Origin: Paludibacteraceae bacterium
Lineage (GTDB): Bacteria > Bacteroidota > Bacteroidia > Bacteroidales > Paludibacteraceae
NCBI GenBank assembly: GCA_017559505.1
Contig: JAFYSF010000025.1
Location: forward strand, 20,637 to 84,636
DNA: 64,000 nt
Direction of reading: 5' to 3'
A program made the position numbers and the translations under genes. Numbering within the stretch: the stretch's first letter is position 1; each line of letters begins with the position of its first letter. Under the pieces are notes generated by a model, which saw only the letters and a list, made by a program, of their open reading frames with translations, had not been told where the DNA came from and did not search any database. Shown here piece by piece: positions 8,332 to 62,299 of the stretch.

Positions 8332-8416
8332 AATATTTTCTTATGGGACTTCTATAAATTACCTTGTAAATAAAATTAAAAAACGGGCAATTTATAGAAG
8401 TTCCCTTGTTACAAAC

Positions 8417-8517
8417 ACCCATTTACAGTGTGTATCAAAATCACAAATCTCTCCTTACCCTCAAGCAACCTTCAAGCAACCTTCACCGAAGAAGACTGAC
8501 ACACACTCTCATTGTGT
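8417..8517 (-). repeat. copy 1 of the GTGTCAGTCTTCTTCGRTGAAGGTTGCTTGAAGGTTGC element family (reverse orientation; full ~105-bp form)
   Basis: The reverse complement aligns along its length with 49840-49948. The core also occurs at 23676-23724 and 40460-40558. Confidence 0.85.
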
Positions 8518-8530
8518 ACTCGCATTAAAA

Positions 8531-8558
8531 ATTCCTCACTCCTCATTCCTCATTCCAA
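8531..8558. repeat. tandem heptamer array ATTCCTC x4
   Basis: attcctc actcctc attcctc attccaa. Overlaps the dusB stop codon and last codons. Confidence 0.85.
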
Positions 8559-10843: not shown

Positions 10844-11155
10844 GCTTTTCAACATACTCACATCGTGCATTATTTTGTAGGTTTTCTTGCTTACACCTTG
10901 CTTGAAGGTATAAATAATATGGTAACATCACTCCCACTTTGTACATACGAGAACACTCTTGGGATGTCACTCTACTTAGGCACACATAAGGAGCAGCTAT
11001 GGCTCACTATCTTGGCTCTATTCTTAAACTTGCTATTCGCAAAATTCAAATTTTACGAAATTCAAGAGAGTAAACCTACATTTCCAACTTAAACCTCCAA
11101 CGCACTTTCAAGATGTTGTATCTTTGCAAAAAATTGAAGGAGGGCAAATAAAAAA

Positions 11156-23675: not shown

Positions 23676-23724
23676 GTGTCAGTCTTCTTCGATGAAGGTT
23701 GCTTGAAGGTTGCTATTGGGTAAA
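23676..23724 (+). repeat. copy 2 (core only) of the GTGTCAGTCTTCTTCGATGAAGGTTGCTTGAAGGTTGC element
   Basis: gtgtcagtcttcttcgatgaaggttgcttgaaggttgctattgggtaaag. Confidence 0.85.
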
Positions 23725-31966: not shown

Positions 31967-32032
31967 TTATAGTATGTTTATAGTATATTTATCCTATATT
32001 TATAGTATATTTATGGTATATTTATAGTATAT
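31967..32032. repeat. 6 x 11-bp tandem array (TTATAGTATAT family), module copy A
   Basis: ttatagtatgt ttatagtatat ttatcctatat ttatagtatat ttatggtatat ttatagtatat. Paralogous to 62150-62215. Confidence 0.9.
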
Positions 32033-32123
32033 TGAAGGTATGAAGAGGATAGGGTGAGGGGAGGGGGGATTGTGTGTGTATTTATGGGGTGGTGGGGGTG
32101 GAGGGTGTAATGTGTTGGGTGTG
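32033..32123. repeat. G/T-rich low-complexity tail with G-runs, roughly 7-nt phased
   Basis: tgaaggt atgaaga ggatagg gtgaggg gaggggg ... ggggtggtgggggtggaggg. Confidence 0.6.
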
Positions 32124-39308: not shown

Positions 39309-40382
39309 ATGAAAATCATTAATGTTGATGCACCTAAGCATCTTTTAAAAAAAATTGAACACAACAGAATTTATGATTTTATTCTTGATGTAGTTCGACC
39401 ATTAGAGTGTTGTTATTACGAACATTTTTCTCGTCATAGCTACCCATTATCTCATTATCATCACTATCACTCATGTCATTTTAATGCTTATGAAAGCATA
39501 GCAATTCTGTTACATACAATGCCGATTTTTCTTCGTGATTCAGCATCTCGAAGCCGTGATGATAATGCTATTATTGACCCATTGGGTGCATATTTTTCTA
39601 ACCGAAAAAGTGATAGTGCGTACATTGAGTTGTATTTGTCTAACATTGATGATGAGGCTAAAAATGATGAACATTTTAAATGGTTATTCACAAAAGTTTT
39701 AATACACGAGTTGGCTCATGCTACTATGGATGTTTGGGATGAAAAAGTGTCTTATCATACTGAATTTGGTAGATGGCGTGAAGAATCAATGGCAAATGCT
39801 ATAGCCCTTAGAATAATAAAAGAATATGCTGACCAAGATTTCTATGATTATGCTAAAATATTTATGCAATCACAACCTGCAGAATATGCACTCGGTGTAT
39901 TGATGGTAGATTTAGAATATTGGGATTTTAGTGATGTTGTACGTTCTAAATATCATGGGGTTAATCTTGATTTACAAAAAGAATGGCTTAATTATGTAAA
40001 AGGATCTCCAAATTTGGATGGATTAAAAACATGGAATGATTTATTATCTAGAGCTGATGTATATTATTTCCAATGTAAATATTATACTTCAGAAGAAGAT
40101 CTTGTATATGATATTGTAAACGAGGTTCTTTCTGATTATGAAGCTAACAATGGAGAAAATATGGATTATGCGAAATTTAGTTCTTTATTCCCTTGTATCG
40201 AAATGAGTGAAGACGAAATGTCGTATGAACCAGCTAACAAAGTAGAAGGTAATGATAGTTATGAAACCAAAATAGAACTAAAAGACGGTGATTATTATTT
40301 ATATGACTGTTGGACTAACAAAGAACTTCATGAGTTTATAAAAAATGTAAAAGTAGATTTAAAAGAGTTTACTAATTGGTAG
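39309..40382 (+). CDS. hypothetical protein with HExxH zinc-metallopeptidase motif
   Basis: 357 aa from MKIINVDAPK (the ORF-track start lies inside the terminator). VLIHELAHATMD is followed by EESMANA ~24 aa downstream (gluzincin-like spacing). The N-terminus has a Cys/His-rich patch CCYYEHFSRHSYPLSHYHHYHSCH. Confidence 0.5.
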   Translation: MKIINVDAPKHLLKKIEHNRIYDFILDVVRPLECCYYEHFSRHSYPLSHYHHYHSCHFNAYESIAILLHTMPIFLRDSASRSRDDNAIIDPLGAYFSNRKSDSAYIELYLSNIDDEAKNDEHFKWLFTKVLIHELAHATMDVWDEKVSYHTEFGRWREESMANAIALRIIKEYADQDFYDYAKIFMQSQPAEYALGVLMVDLEYWDFSDVVRSKYHGVNLDLQKEWLNYVKGSPNLDGLKTWNDLLSRADVYYFQCKYYTSEEDLVYDIVNEVLSDYEANNGENMDYAKFSSLFPCIEMSEDEMSYEPANKVEGNDSYETKIELKDGDYYLYDCWTNKELHEFIKNVKVDLKEFTNW

Positions 40383-40459
40383 TTTCTGCTCAATGTGGAT
40401 AATAAAACATACAAAGTTGCAATGTAATTTTAACCCTATATAAATACCATCGTTGCTAT

Positions 40460-40558
40460 GTGTCAGTCTTCTTCGATGAAGGTTGCTTGAAGGTTGCTTA
40501 CAGATAAGGAAAGGTTTTATCTTATCCATCAGCAAAGTACAAGCAACCTTTAAGCAAG
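40460..40558 (+). repeat. copy 3 of the GTGTCAGTCTTC... element core, extended into a long hairpin
   Basis: The core is followed by a 15-bp stem (40485-40499 with 40541-55, one G-U pair) that encloses an inner gataag/cttatc hairpin. Confidence 0.8.
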
Positions 40559-40917
40559 AAAACAGCCATCTTTACACCCTACATTTACAAAGTCTGCAAA
40601 ACAAATAAAATCCACTTGACCAAGTTTATTTTCCTAAAAAATAGACAATTTTTCTACTTTTTTCCTAAATAAATAGACGAACTTTGCAATTGCAAAGTTG
40701 CAAAGTTAATCTAAAGTTCTGATTATTAAAGCTAAAGCCTCTTTGCATTGTAATCAATCCTAATAAATATTTAGCATGTAACTCAAAGAATACCACCGTG
40801 TTGTCTTAATTTTATAAACTTTGTAAACTTTGCAACTCCTTATAAGCAAAAAATCTTATGTTAATATCTTGTTAATATTTTTAATAAAAAACAGCGTGGA
40901 ACATTCGAAAAAAAATG

Positions 40918-40925
40918 CTACTTTT
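40918..40925 (+). promoter_or_regulatory. candidate -7 box TACTTTTG
   Basis: 47 nt upstream of the ATG at 40972. Confidence 0.45.
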
Positions 40926-40971
40926 GTATTTTATTTGCATGGGGTTCTATGTAAATACTAAATGAGTAATT

Positions 40972-42003
40972 ATGAGAGTGTTGATAACTTGTTTTTCGTC
41001 TATTAGCAATGTTGCTGCAATTGTTCCACAGCTTTATGGACTTGTGAATGACTATCCTCAGCACGAATTTGTTGTGCTAAGCCGTAGTTTTTTGAAGCCA
41101 TTGTTCGACAAATTGCCACGTGTGACTTTTGTCGGTGCTGACATTCGTGGCGAGCATAAAACAATCGTTGGGGTATATCAGTTATTCAAACAATTAAAGG
41201 CTATGAGGCCAGATGTTGTATTAGACATGCAACGCTCGTGGCGCACGAAGTTGATAACTCGCCTTTTTACATTGTTAGGTACTAAAACTTTACAAATTGG
41301 ATTTGCTCGAAGCGAACAAAAACATTTGATTAAACAAGGAGCAAACAAGTATCACCCAATTCCTACAATATTCGACCGCCAAGCACGTTTATATGCTAAA
41401 ATAGGGCTGAAAGTAAACGATGATTTCCATAAACTCTATGACCCAAACATGGAGCAAGTGGCAAAAATCAAAGAATTGTATGGGGAGAAACTTGGACATT
41501 GGATTGGCATTGCTCCATTCTCGATTGCAAGAGGTAAAACATTGCCACTCCGCAAGATGAAGAATGTTATTGCTCATTTTGACAAGCAACCAAATACAAA
41601 AATTTTCTTGTTCGGCGCAGGAGAAATGGAGAACGAGTTGCTCTCTGATTGGCAATCGCTCTACAACAATGTTTATGCGGTGCATACAAATTTGAAACTT
41701 GACGATGAATTGATATTGATGAATTTTTTGGATGTTATGTTGTGTATGGACTCGGCTAATATGCACTTAGCGTCGTTGATGGCTGTACCTGTGGTGAGTG
41801 TTTGGGGCGCAACGCATCCTTATTCGGGATTTCTTGGATGGAAACAGTCTGTGGATAATTGCGTAGGAGTAGATTTTTCGTGCCGACCTTGTACGGCTCA
41901 TTCCGACAAGAAATGTAAATATGGCGACTATCGTTGCCTCGAAAGTCTCCATTCAAGCAAAATAATAGAAATAATTAATCAATGCATAATGCACAATGCA
42001 TAA
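40972..42003 (+). CDS. glycosyltransferase family 9 (heptosyltransferase-like)
   Basis: 343 aa with a two-Rossmann GT-B layout. Its size and motifs resemble LPS heptosyltransferase-type proteins. The C-terminus (QCIMHNA) is encoded by a heptamer array. Confidence 0.6.
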   Translation: MRVLITCFSSISNVAAIVPQLYGLVNDYPQHEFVVLSRSFLKPLFDKLPRVTFVGADIRGEHKTIVGVYQLFKQLKAMRPDVVLDMQRSWRTKLITRLFTLLGTKTLQIGFARSEQKHLIKQGANKYHPIPTIFDRQARLYAKIGLKVNDDFHKLYDPNMEQVAKIKELYGEKLGHWIGIAPFSIARGKTLPLRKMKNVIAHFDKQPNTKIFLFGAGEMENELLSDWQSLYNNVYAVHTNLKLDDELILMNFLDVMLCMDSANMHLASLMAVPVVSVWGATHPYSGFLGWKQSVDNCVGVDFSCRPCTAHSDKKCKYGDYRCLESLHSSKIIEIINQCIMHNA

Positions 42004-46316: not shown

Positions 46317-46383
46317 CTTTTACCTTACTTCTCCATACCTTCTTCATAGGATAACCCTACCTTCAAAACAAATTCAACGCTAT

Positions 46384-47520: not shown

Positions 47521-48393
47521 TCATACGTTAGCTCTATTGAAGTCTTTTCTTATTTGCTCACGAAGGTTCTCAAGAGAAGAAAAACGTTGCTCATGGCGCA
47601 AAAAACGCAAAAAACGCAACTCTAACTCCTCACCATATAACTCTACACCTTCATATCCTATAATATGAACTTCTATAGTGCGCTTATCGCCAGAAACAGT
47701 AGGTCGTGTACCTATATTCAATACACCCCTATATTCTTTACCTCTCACAACAACTTCTACAACATAAACTCCATCAGATGGTATCAATTTAAACGAATCA
47801 ACCTGCAAGTTTGCTGTAGGAAATCCTATTTGACGACCTATTTTTTGACCTTCTACTACCCTACCTTTAACAAAATATTTATAACCTAAAAACTTATTAG
47901 CCAAAGGTATATCCCATAATTCTAACGCACGACGCACTTTTGAACTACTCACCATCACTTCACTCTCACTAAAACCATCGCAGCGTTTAATCTCTAAACC
48001 TAATTGCTTGCCATACGCAATATACTCGTCGAAAGATGTACTTCTATCGCTGCCAAATCGATGGTCATACCCCATCAACAACACTTTAACTCCATAATTC
48101 TCAACAAGTAATTGCATAAATTCACGCGATGTAAGTTTTGATAACTTATCATCAAATTGCAACATAACTACCTCATCAACACCTTTTTGTTTAAGTAAAT
48201 CAACTTTCTCGTCTGATAGAGTCAACTGCTTCAATGCACAATTAGGGTCGAAAAACAATCGTGGATGATTGGCAAATGTAACAACTACAGATTGCATACC
48301 TCTTTGTTGTGCTTCTGTTTTTAATTGCTCCAACAAATAGTTATGCCCTAAGTGTACACCATCGAAAAATCCAATAGTAGCTACTTTACTCAT
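47521..48393 (-). CDS. ribF: bifunctional riboflavin kinase / FMN adenylyltransferase
   Basis: 290 aa with GFFDGVHLGH and GFPTANL. Confidence 0.9.
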   Translation of the reverse strand: MSKVATIGFFDGVHLGHNYLLEQLKTEAQQRGMQSVVVTFANHPRLFFDPNCALKQLTLSDEKVDLLKQKGVDEVVMLQFDDKLSKLTSREFMQLLVENYGVKVLLMGYDHRFGSDRSTSFDEYIAYGKQLGLEIKRCDGFSESEVMVSSSKVRRALELWDIPLANKFLGYKYFVKGRVVEGQKIGRQIGFPTANLQVDSFKLIPSDGVYVVEVVVRGKEYRGVLNIGTRPTVSGDKRTIEVHIIGYEGVELYGEELELRFLRFLRHEQRFSSLENLREQIRKDFNRANV

Positions 48394-49805
48394 TATTTTT
48401 TAGCATCAATACGTTTTGTAATTATCTCATAAAGAATGAGTCCAATAGCAGCAGCAACACCAATGGCAGCAAAATAATACCAAATGTAATGTGCATTGGC
48501 AGATGCTTCAAGCCAAGCCTCACGAGTTTCAAACAATTTTGGGTCTGGACAATATTTTTGCAACAATACGCCTGACAAACCAAAACCTATGATAGATGAG
48601 AAGAATGAATCTAACTGACTAAAACCAAGATACATACCCTCTTCACCTTTAGGTGCTTGAAGAGAGAAATACTCTAAATAGCGCGGAGTGATGAAACACT
48701 CACACAAACCTTGTAACATAATACCTACGACCAACATAAGTGTGATAGGGTGCATTCCAATAATAGGCTCACTACCAAGAAGATTGCCTGTTGACATAAC
48801 CAATGCCGCTACTGGTACTAAAATCATACCTACAACCATAGAGGTTAGGGCAGTGTAGCGCGACATCCATTTAGTAATTAAATTAACCATCAAGACTACA
48901 ACCAATGGGTTGACGTTGGCAATCCAACCAGGTTTAGCTGCCTCGCCTGCCATACGGATAACATATTTAGGCATAGTAGCATACAACTGTTGCTGACACA
49001 TCCAGAAACCAGAGGCAATAAAAATAAAAATCAATAAACGTTTGTTAGTCAAACCTTTCCACAAACCTTGCCATACTTCACGCATTGTTTTATTCTCACC
49101 TTCGGTATTCACCGAATGATACATAAATATAATTAACAACAAAGCAATGAGACACAATGCTGTAGAGAAGAAATTGACATAGATATAAGCACGCTCGCCA
49201 ATCCAAGAACGTAGTGGGTCTATAACTGTTTTACCACTGAAAGCACCAATATTGACTAAAGTGTAGAAAATAGAGTAGCCTCGAGCGCGTGTTTCAGTAG
49301 TTGTTTCACGTGCAACAGAAGCACGAATAAGACTACGAATGAAACTACCACCTACGACCATAATCAACATAATTGGTATAACTAACCATTTGAGTGGACT
49401 TTCGTGCAATCCAAAATATTGGTTTTCGGTAATAACATTTGCTACGAGTGCTTTTGCACCTTCAGGTGCATCGGCATAATGAACTAATCCAAGACCTTCG
49501 AGCATAAATGGCAATACACCCAACAAGAGATAGCCAATAGGCATCATAGTGAAGGCAATAATCATAGCTTTGCGATAACCAATTTTGTCGGCATAGGCAC
49601 CTGTGAAAATTGGTAGCAAATACATCAACGCAGAAAATCCACCAGAAATGAACCCTGCCTCAATATCGCTAAATCCAAGAATATTCGACAAATAAAAAGT
49701 AATGGCTATAAAAAGCGCATAATAAGCCGTACGCTCGAGCATCTCGGCAACATTGGCTGTCCAGAAAGCAGCTGAAAATTTTAATTTTTGAGTTTGTTGT
49801 TCCAT
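48393..49805 (-). CDS. POT/PTR2-family peptide MFS transporter
   Basis: Start moved to MEQQTQKLKF (ATG = revcomp 49803-49805). EMLERTAYY is an ExxER-type motif. The ORF-track N-terminal 50 aa read through the repeat element. Confidence 0.8.
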   Translation of the reverse strand: MEQQTQKLKFSAAFWTANVAEMLERTAYYALFIAITFYLSNILGFSDIEAGFISGGFSALMYLLPIFTGAYADKIGYRKAMIIAFTMMPIGYLLLGVLPFMLEGLGLVHYADAPEGAKALVANVITENQYFGLHESPLKWLVIPIMLIMVVGGSFIRSLIRASVARETTTETRARGYSIFYTLVNIGAFSGKTVIDPLRSWIGERAYIYVNFFSTALCLIALLLIIFMYHSVNTEGENKTMREVWQGLWKGLTNKRLLIFIFIASGFWMCQQQLYATMPKYVIRMAGEAAKPGWIANVNPLVVVLMVNLITKWMSRYTALTSMVVGMILVPVAALVMSTGNLLGSEPIIGMHPITLMLVVGIMLQGLCECFITPRYLEYFSLQAPKGEEGMYLGFSQLDSFFSSIIGFGLSGVLLQKYCPDPKLFETREAWLEASANAHYIWYYFAAIGVAAAIGLILYEIITKRIDAKK

Positions 49806-49839
49806 ATAATAGATTTTTTTATTTTTATCAAGAATAAAT

Positions 49840-49948
49840 ACACACAGTGAGTGGGTGTCAGTCTTCTTCGGTGAAGTTTGCTTGAAGGTTGCTTGAGAGG
49901 GTAGGAAGATATTTGGATTTTGAATATACACTGTGAATGGGTAGTCAG
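49840..49948 (+). repeat. copy 4 (full ~105-bp form) of the GTGTCAGTCTTC... element, with ~20-bp terminal direct repeats
   Basis: DR-L is acacagtgagtgggtgtcag (49842-61) and DR-R is acactgtgaatgggtagtcag (49928-48). The core is gtcttcttcggtgaagtttgcttgaaggttgcttgagagggtagg. Confidence 0.85.
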
Positions 49949-50030
49949 AAAACAATTTTTTTTAGAAAAACTATTAAATCTACACTAAAAATCAAGCACA
50001 GATACTAAGCATTAGAAAAATATTCGATTC

Positions 50031-62149: not shown

Positions 62150-62215
62150 TTATAGTATATTTATAGTATGTTTATAGTATATTTATCCTATATTTATGGT
62201 ATATTTATAGTATAT
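62150..62215. repeat. 6 x 11-bp tandem array (TTATAGTATAT family), module copy B
   Basis: ttatagtatat ttatagtatgt ttatagtatat ttatcctatat ttatggtatat ttatagtatat. Confidence 0.9.
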
Positions 62216-62299
62216 TGAAGGTAAGGAGAGGTTAGGGAGCAGGGAGTAGGAAATAAGGAGTAGGGAGCAGGGAGTTGAAGTGAGAGTTGAGGGATTTGT
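62216..62299. repeat. purine/G-rich tail made of 12 in-phase heptamers
   Basis: tgaaggt aaggaga ggttagg gagcagg gagtagg aaataag gagtagg gagcagg gagttga agtgaga gttgagg gatttgt. Confidence 0.8.

Follow-up and report, generated by a model that had tools for sequence, protein, structure and literature searches.

BIME-1/RIP elements of enterobacteria consist of two repetitive extragenic palindromic (REP) sequences flanking an IHF-binding linker. The BOX elements of Streptococcus pneumoniae are organized as boxA-(boxB)n-boxC and occur in ~100+ intergenic copies, in either orientation and with no known transposase. BrickBuilt of Porphyromonas gingivalis is a minisatellite MITE (a miniature transposable element with inverted repeats) that has a leader, tandem direct repeats, and a tail; its 19 copies are built of 23-nt units in up to 22.8 repeats and reach 991 nt (PMC4596501). 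STAR elements of staphylococci are dispersed direct repeats of intergenic regions that combine a short conserved motif with variable spacers (PMC3532100), and multicopy small RNA (sRNA) families are documented in Bacteroides (PMC11697453). Here we describe an intergenic repeat family in a 64,000-nt stretch of DNA (the window; contig JAFYSF010000025.1, positions 20,637 to 84,636, here C29:20637-84636) from a Paludibacteraceae metagenome-assembled genome (MAG), designated G000 (2.34 Mb, 72 contigs, 38.4% GC, 96% complete); other G-numbers denote related genomes of the same genus or sister species. With a probability of roughly 55%, we read the family as a mosaic repeat that is old, restricted to one lineage, and of the same kind as BIME, BOX, and BrickBuilt, and that now evolves by exchange of bricks between copies and not by active transposition.

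A degenerate 38-nt core pattern matched the window at exactly four positions (8465-8502 on the minus strand and 23676-23713, 40460-40497, and 49855-49892 on the plus strand; copies 1, 2, 3a, and 4), against a chance expectation of 0 in 100 shuffles. Across G000, a fuzzy 38-mer search returned 48 copies, a degenerate-pattern search 94, and an nhmmer profile made from genomic copies (E<1e-3) 127, of which 112 were nearly full length. Each copy is laid out as a head, DTG-N-C-W-G-T-Y-TTCTT, three 11-nt units, and a tail, GAGGGTARGG. Per-position counts over 94 copies revealed a sharp left edge, TG (92/94 for each base), preceded by A, G, or T; the head is followed by a first unit, TTCGGTG or TTGCTTG, then by two TTGCTTG 7-mers at 11-nt spacing, and then by the decaying tail. 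The 11-nt unit comprises TTGCTTG and four dimorphic bases, and the four-base spacers between the 7-mers come in discrete states (AAGG, CACC, CAGG, CAGT, and AGGG). In cross-tables, these spacer states, two head types (CAGTC and CTGTT), and the two first-unit types were mixed in many combinations. Alternative bricks also occur in the family (GGTATGGTTATCCTATGA, TATAGTATATT, and GTATAGTATATT).

Many cores are accompanied by a palindromic motif, H (ATACACA-[MTGWGAG]-TGTGTAT), which is present in 107 non-redundant copies in G000 and occurs in either orientation, some right-hand copies reading ATACACACTCTCATTGTGTAT. According to context, the 127 cores comprise 45 that are H-associated, 29 with a promoter-like box, and 53 that are naked, and H flanks the core on both sides in 29 copies. 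Another 36 H motifs have no head-type core nearby. These lie mostly in ~15 pairs, mostly 93-94 or 104 nt apart, which enclose other cores that share the TTGCTTG units and the tail and also contain the bricks GGTATGGTTATCCTATGA and GTATAGTATATT; nearly all of the 36 were scored as intergenic, as befits abundant extragenic palindromes of the REP/BIME kind. Among neighboring H pairs, 38 of 45 were in the same orientation. Two TATAGTATATT arrays in the window (31967-32123 and 62150-62299) share the junction GAGTGTGTGT-ATTTTTTGCAG-RTAAGGTTAT. Because of these shared units and this junction, the head-type cores, the other H-bounded cores, and the TATAGTATATT arrays are one brick-built superfamily.

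The family proved to be narrowly distributed. Exact-pattern matches in the species collection were confined to 'Paludibacteraceae bacterium RGIG7225' from water-buffalo caecum. When up to three mismatches were allowed, the core was found in 10 of 24 other genomes searched from the same genus (the mismatch search counted 47 in G000, 15 in G018, 15 in G013, and 0 in G017) and in none of the 16 genomes searched that represent other families of the order; a reversed-pattern control returned 0 matches. The core-positive genomes form a subclade, since their genes flanking the site of copy 4 (window site 4) are at least 82% identical to those of G000. Among 151 genomes of the family, motif H was present in just four of this genus (55 in G000, 68 in G013, 17 in G007, and 7 in G017 in this search), plus one single match elsewhere, the lone one across 32 other genera. 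The core was also carried by 63 metagenome contigs, nearly all from one assembly; their best alignments to G000 were 67-96% identical (weighted mean 78%), indicating that they derive from other species. None of the viral contigs searched carried the core.

The history of individual copies was followed by searching the joined flanks of 22 G000 sites in ten genomes and then fetching the spacers. All six G018 element sites with sequence were also filled in G000, with flanks 83-91% identical. Window site 4 was filled in G000, G018, G006, G013, G020, and G016 and empty in G003, G007, G012, G017, and G023. C65_115946 carried an element in G000 and G018 alone, its spacer being empty in G006, G007, G016, G017, and G020. 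Five more sites (C21_16467, C43_5132, C71_5812, C20_35818, and C44_53928) were empty, with 10-60 nt between the genes, in G003, G007, or G016, and a further five (C29_44316, C42_59324, C11_9210, C18_2955, and C30_62023) had an empty spacer of this size in at least one species. These differing filled/empty patterns indicate that copies were gained, or precisely lost, at different times. No target-site duplication (TSD) was found at the five filled/empty junctions inspected (C20_35818, C21_16467, C43_5132, C71_5812, and C65_115946), the last of which lies in an A-run and is uninformative. At least one insert (C20_35818) carries ~15-30 nt of unique sequence beyond the recognizable bricks.

At sites that are filled in sister species, the bricks themselves differ. 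At window site 4, the core is ~40% different between G000 and G018 with flanks 90% identical, and the G018 variant, TCTAAGGAGCAGT, is found at other G000 loci. G000 has a head brick at C42_59324 where G018 has GAAGGTATGGTTATCCTATGAT, an 11-nt length difference with the rest homologous, and at C29_44316 and C65_115946 the two genomes differ in core type beside the same H. A 156-157-bp spacer at C25_1498 is kept by five species with three different cores; two further species (G020 and G007; loci L056 and L057) have CTATAG-type repeats instead. Across the genome, the most similar pair of full copies was 90.3% identical, and the median was 66%. H and the 7-mers are retained at orthologous sites while nearby spacer sequence has diverged beyond alignment.

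Two side observations concern the same sites. The element-less spacers orthologous to window positions 49806-50030 (in G003, G007, G012, G017, and G023) carry a CTATAG tandem repeat with a 9-11-nt period, so that this spacer holds some phased repeat in nearly every species. At site C4_9211 (loci L058 and L060), the G003 element is almost identical to that of G018; at window site 4, however, it falls within the 'empty' clade, and the N-terminus of its gene differs. This conflict suggests inter-species recombination in these regions.

The genomic context was assessed using crude ORF (open reading frame)-based gene calls. About 118 of the 127 copies lie between ORF calls, and 9 fall inside one; 83 lie between co-directional genes, 16 between convergent genes, and 12 between divergent genes. 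The TAnnTTTG box, the canonical Bacteroidetes -7 element, was present on the transcribed strand in 36-48% of element-bearing co-directional spacers and in 38% of element-free ones, and it was never found inside the core. The idea that the element supplies this box was rejected, as its frequency equals that of the controls and none lies within the core. Since the box is as rare in element spacers as in controls, most copies are probably transcribed passively within longer mRNAs. Together, these results describe a non-coding family that is probably co-transcribed within gene spacers.

In the reading that we favor, copies would have entered very short gene spacers at different times in the radiation of one Paludibacteraceae subclade, through an insertion process that leaves no TSD, and would have been inherited vertically afterward. 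Non-allelic recombination or slippage between copies may then keep the elements recognizable and re-assort their bricks, with the shared 7-mers, the GAAGG/GAGGG junctions, and the H motifs as possible homology anchors; an active transposase would not be what sustains the family. In most spacers, the element probably rides in a polycistronic transcript, and selection would act only against harmful orientations. We infer from these patterns that gene conversion is the homogenizing force and that the family is neutral. Core 'cassettes' could also be swapped by recombination at H, which would explain the different cores beside identical H motifs in sister species.

Several points weigh against this reading. 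In co-directional spacers, 56 copies are antisense and 27 are sense to transcription (binomial p ~0.002; an earlier subset of 45:20 gave p=0.0026), and a bias of this kind means that the element is not fully neutral; the bias relative to the G-rich (leading) strand was not significant (49/82, p=0.10). Purifying selection for a function, instead of gene conversion, could also underlie the persistence of H and the 7-mers, and the old family is kept recognizable either by exchange between copies or by selection on the shared 7-mers and H. Length is tightly kept, with 13 of the 29 full H-core-H copies measuring exactly 103 bp with both H motifs included, and a physical constraint is hinted at by the H-H distances, which fall into groups of 73-75, 83-86, 93-94, and 104 nt. 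In the 29 promoter-associated copies, hereafter P-cores, the conserved promoter-like box AACTTTGCAAAT stands 12-14 nt upstream of the head. MAGs often lose multicopy insertion sequences (IS), so the absence of a transposase from G000 is weak evidence, and no enzyme responsible for the first insertion was found.

The length regularities would be accounted for if the family were an architectural DNA element of the BIME-1/RIP kind, in which two H sites whole helical turns apart are bridged by a protein, either a lineage-specific DNA-binding protein or a nucleoid protein together with an H-binder, organizing local topology between genes, and in which three TTGCTTG repeats at 11 bp on one helix face form a bend or wrap site. 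The 7+4 periodicity is consistent with this idea, the 7-mer being 75-100% conserved even where the search pattern did not force it; as the spacers are dimorphic bricks and do not vary freely, however, the pattern may reflect only shared brick ancestry. H has the form of an inverted half-site pair, ACACA-N7-TGTGT, with a conserved asymmetric center, and it fits a protein site better than a selected hairpin because its stem shows no more covariation than shuffles and an uncompensated A.G mismatch in 30 of 104 copies. The H-H distances approximate 7, 8, 9, and 10 x 10.5, with the 84 and 93 spacings recurring in G013, G007, and G017; the 103-bp length is kept across two internal layouts (direct fusion of H to the head, or an H that is complete and has a 7-10-nt linker); and the same spacer is filled by some phased repeat in every species even where the family differs. 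Yet the length classes can be by-products of the gain and loss of 11-nt bricks in two layouts, and for two series offset by 9-10 nt, the probability of seeming phased is ~30%. No protein candidate emerged, H is missing altogether from about half of the copies (the 53 naked cores), and a device acting at the DNA level should ignore the direction of transcription, contrary to the observed orientation bias. We regard an architectural role as unlikely. Current activity as a non-autonomous transposon (a MITE, or a hairpin-ended PATE/REP-type element) mobilized in trans by a transposase lost from the MAG assembly appears quite unlikely. Filled/empty polymorphism, lineage-specific expansion (the uneven core counts in G000, G018, G013, and G017 and the uneven H counts in G000, G013, G007, and G017), same-orientation sub-terminal hairpins at both ends combined with TSD-less insertion, as in IS200/IS605-derived elements, and Y1 transposases in 11 of 26 genomes of the genus are all compatible with such activity. 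The Pfam family Y1_Tnp (PF01797), however, is absent from G000, G018, G006, G012, and G020, all of which are copy-rich, and neither H nor the core was found within ~1.5 kb (where the contig allowed) of four Y1 genes that were fetched. No pair of full copies exceeds 90.3% identity, the six tested G018 sites are all shared with G000 at ~10% flank divergence, and the ends of the inserts are not fixed, with about half of the copies lacking H and extra unique sequence at C20_35818. No longer H-bounded element or autonomous partner was seen in a screen limited to the Y1 transposase family; with no TSD and no IS partner, and with ends that are copies of one palindrome in mostly direct orientation, the family is not a MITE. 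A link to RAYT/IS200 was rejected, as the presence of Y1_Tnp in the genus is not correlated with the element and the hairpins found in G013 are unrelated. There, a Y1 gene of the IS200/RAYT type is flanked on both sides by the hairpin CTGCAGGTAATTTTTGC...GCAAAAATCACCCGCAG (G013:C35; locus L029, 1313-1364 and 1993-2044). The genus thus has a REP/RAYT-like or IS200 system that is distinct from H and bears no relation to it.

The P-cores bear on a function at the RNA level, in which they would be multicopy sRNA genes with an unstructured, G/U-rich 5′ part and the copies embedded in mRNA spacers would either function in cis, as sites that govern processing or stability, or provide the sRNA with complementary targets; we consider this unlikely. 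The box arrangement is repeated in G003, G007, G012, G013, G016, and G020, and the CTGTT-type heads of the element-poor G003 (3 matches) and G007 (its only match) are of the promoter-associated kind. Most P-cores do not face a gene downstream (one lies ahead of only 8, another 8 being antisense and 7 convergent), which fits stand-alone transcripts; an unstructured core is what a single-stranded seed would show; and 56 copies are antisense in co-directional spacers, the antisense heads examined lying at a median of ~50 nt from the next start codon. On the other hand, the box has A or G in place of T of the Bacteroidetes -7 consensus, has no -33 TTTG at the proper spacing, and contains a half-site, AACTTTGCAA, that is itself a dispersed repeat, so that P-cores may be just another brick combination. 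A terminator-like hairpin follows just 9 of the 29, and because P-cores are mostly of the CTGTT/TAAGGAGCAG type and embedded copies of the CAGTC/CGGTGAAGG type, contiguous complementarity between them is only ~8 nt. No conserved fold emerged from the RNAalifold consensus of 13 type-I elements (-5.4 kcal/mol, covariation term +0.14). Rfam gave no match at the gathering threshold in the whole window, to FopS, GibS, or others, and more permissive scanning, applied to 40300-41000 and to six loci of relatives, yielded only chance matches, with E up to 5. Among single-copy folds, only copy 1 and the inverted copy 3 pair beat shuffles, which copies 2 and 4 do not; the fold of the copy 3 pair (-34 to -40 kcal/mol; z = -3.0 and -5.3) is explained by the inverted arrangement. 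A stronger version, a regulon propagated by the repeat, in which the ~29 P-cores are sRNA genes and more than 50 antisense spacer copies, with heads a few tens of nt upstream of start codons, are their complementary targets, is very unlikely; if it were true, one trans-acting RNA would have become connected with dozens of unrelated genes through the spread of one repeat. Finally, a micro-gene family encoding a 13-15-residue peptide, M[STA]VF[FL][GL][EA]GCL[KH][VL]A, was considered. ATG, GTG, or TTG stands at the same position in 114 of the 127 copies, CTG was seen once where ~10% would be expected from the flanks, 42 copies have an open frame of exactly 13 codons and 22 have one of 15, and ATG or GTG also begins each of the 19 copies examined from other species. 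At the protein level, however, the changes are radical (EG to AP, KV to HL) and track 4-nt brick differences, a single 7-mer turns up in three different reading frames, the most common P-core variant has only four codons before its stop (ATG GCT GTT TTC TAA), and the copy 4 orthologues in G018 and G013 have early stops. GTG is moreover the 3′ arm of H (GTGTGT|C), from which ATG and TTG are single substitutions, and 56 of the 83 copies in co-directional spacers are antisense to transcription. The brick-linked radical substitutions, the reading of one 7-mer in three frames, and the four-codon truncations of many copies and orthologues led us to reject the peptide, which almost certainly is not what the family encodes.

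The window itself illustrates most of these variants (Table 1). The original prediction had listed four stretches sharing a core, all of which are present at the positions given and are matched by the 38-nt pattern; the nhmmer profile raised the number to six by adding copy 3b and the degenerate copy, the latter directly preceded by a decayed H-like motif (10851-10874, 3 mismatches). The 2.3 copies of an 11-bp unit described there are in fact three 11-nt units, the first often TTCGGTG rather than TTGCTTG. What had been described as direct repeats of ~20 bp bounding copies 1 and 4 we now recognize as copies of the genome-wide motif H, and the common length of ~105 bp became 105 and 107 bp once the spans were corrected. 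As had been proposed, the four copies lie between co-directional genes (dusB-lgt, rnr-C_GCAxxG, hypothetical-GT9, and uvrC-MFS [major facilitator superfamily]), which are functionally unrelated housekeeping genes, and orientation relative to transcription is not fixed, copies 1, 2, and 3a being sense and copy 4 antisense.

Table 1. Repeat copies and associated features in the 64,000-nt window.
Feature	Position	Strand	Details
Copy 1, full H-core-H, 105 bp	8415-8519	-	H-left 8499-8519; head, units, and tail 8453-8502; H-right 8415-8435
Purine-rich heptamer run GGAATGA/GGAGTGA	8531-8556	-	Abuts copy 1; optional add-on that recurs beside other copies
Degenerate sixth copy TTG-TAGGTTTTCTTGCTTACACCTTGCTTGAAGGTA	10875-10911	+	nhmmer E=1.6e-4
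Copy 2, naked core without H	23676-23724	+	Between rnr and the C_GCAxxG gene, sense to both
Copy 3a, naked core	40460-40508	+	Long hairpin with copy 3b
Copy 3b, CTGTT-subtype core ATG-GCTGTTTTCTTGCTTAAAGGTTGCTTGTACTTTGCT	40521-40569	-	Tail-to-tail with copy 3a; nhmmer E=8e-9
Promoter-like box CAGACTTTGTAAAT	40583-40596	-	13 nt upstream of the copy 3b ATG ('P-core' arrangement); putative promoter
Partial element, GAAGG-TAGGGTTATCCTATGAAG brick only	46323-46366	-	Orthologous G023 spacer has a head-type core
Copy 4, full H-core-H, 107 bp	49838-49944	+	H-left 49838-49858; core and tail 49855-49905; H-right 49924-49944

Copy 1 (nhmmer E=5e-15), which is sense to dusB and lgt, was aligned with the 28 other full copies. 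GGGAGYA-like heptamer runs adjoin other G000 copies as well (C50:10850-10950 and C43:17530-17580). G018 carries another H-bounded element in the spacer orthologous to that of copy 2 (C29_44316), which is empty in G013. Copy 4 is antisense to uvrC and the MFS gene, and the end of its H-left is 33 nt from the MFS start codon. The longest ORF of this MFS/POT transporter (48393-49955, minus strand) begins at a TTG at 49955 within the repeat, whereas the start kept across six species is the ATG at 49805 (MEQQTQK...); one clade of relatives has a shorter N-terminus (MQTQK...). The gene is thus over-extended to 49955 because ORF callers read through the element. The read-through peptide FKQ[PT]SPKKTDT, which had been ascribed to spurious ORFs, is accounted for by the reverse complement of the core.

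Checks had been suggested together with the candidate roles. Copy number across the genome (127 nhmmer matches) and empty sites in relatives (orthologous spacers filled in some species and empty in others) were both positive, while the covariance analysis lent no support to a conserved RNA fold, and Rfam was empty. The proposed roles are partly supported: a mobile element agrees with the copy number and the presence/absence differences and lacks a TSD, near-identical copies, and an autonomous partner; an sRNA gene family is retained for the 29 copies with a promoter-like box only.

Further observations touch the surroundings of the P-cores. The half-site of the promoter-like box is dispersed as a perfect 20-bp palindrome, AACTTTGCAATTGCAAAGTT, which has 16 exact copies in G000, one of them at window 40680-40699, and ~28 with up to two mismatches. 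It often lies 40-90 nt upstream of cores bearing the promoter box, and it could represent two back-to-back -7-like boxes or the operator of a regulator. A motif, CCTAAAAAAGTAGAC / TAGACATATACCTAAAAA, recurs upstream of the box at many P-core loci (window 40625-40675, minus strand) within a longer composite repeat of ~280 bp. In G012:C4 (locus L010, 1-92 and 739-790), a promoter-box core lies ~650 nt upstream of, and divergent from, a 16S rRNA gene; its G000 counterparts are at contig ends (C5:622-700 and C53:12697), probably beside collapsed rRNA operons.

Descriptions of such elements in Bacteroidales are scarce, and even if it is only a mosaic repeat, the family adds a well-resolved example; it shows the re-assortment of 11-nt bricks at fixed loci between sister species. 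In practical terms, it is a warning for annotation, since ORF callers that read through the element extend neighboring genes, as in the MFS gene; it also causes trouble for MAG assembly and binning, and as a marker it could help to tell apart strains or species of this gut lineage. If H and the 7-mers are bound by a protein, or if some copies are sRNA genes, the family would provide a handle on chromosome organization or post-transcriptional control in an uncultured group.

With BIME/REP, the family shares abundant extragenic palindromes (here the 107 H motifs), a limited set of linker motifs in mosaic elements of ~100 bp, a position between genes with probable co-transcription, the lack of a TSD, and restriction to one lineage. 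It differs in that its H pairs are mostly direct (38 of 45), whereas those of BIME alternate (PMC2817692), in that the stem of H is AT-rich with a conserved 7-nt center and without the GTAG head of REP, in that half of its cores occur without a palindrome, and in that G000 has no RAYT, the Y1 genes of relatives carrying other hairpins. The likeness to BOX is one of architecture only, with a modular head, variable repeat units, and a tail; BOX belongs to an unrelated phylum, has units of ~45 nt instead of 11 nt, and is predicted to fold strongly, whereas no stable conserved RNA fold was found here. STAR elements likewise keep conserved genomic locations in related species, but they are GC-rich, have a different motif and spacing, and are not known to have a flanking palindrome (PMC3532100). 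FopS/GibS, multicopy sRNAs of Bacteroides, are possible functional analogues of the 29 promoter-associated copies only: they too occur at numerous paralogous loci, where an unstructured 5′ part is conserved and the 3′ part varies (PMC11697453), while the present copies have no Rfam match, canonical promoter, or consistent terminator. BrickBuilt comes from the same order, Bacteroidales, and is likewise always intergenic, with partial versions lacking the leader or tail and with conserved and non-conserved positions inside each repeat unit. By its description, it differs from the present family with its three 11-nt units, ~127 copies, and tightly kept length of ~103 bp; it has small terminal inverted repeats where a palindrome stands at one or both ends here, and its promoter activity was demonstrated experimentally (PMC4596501), whereas our evidence comes from genome sequences. 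Together, these comparisons indicate that the family resembles BIME/REP, BOX, and BrickBuilt in architecture and genomic behavior but belongs to none of them.

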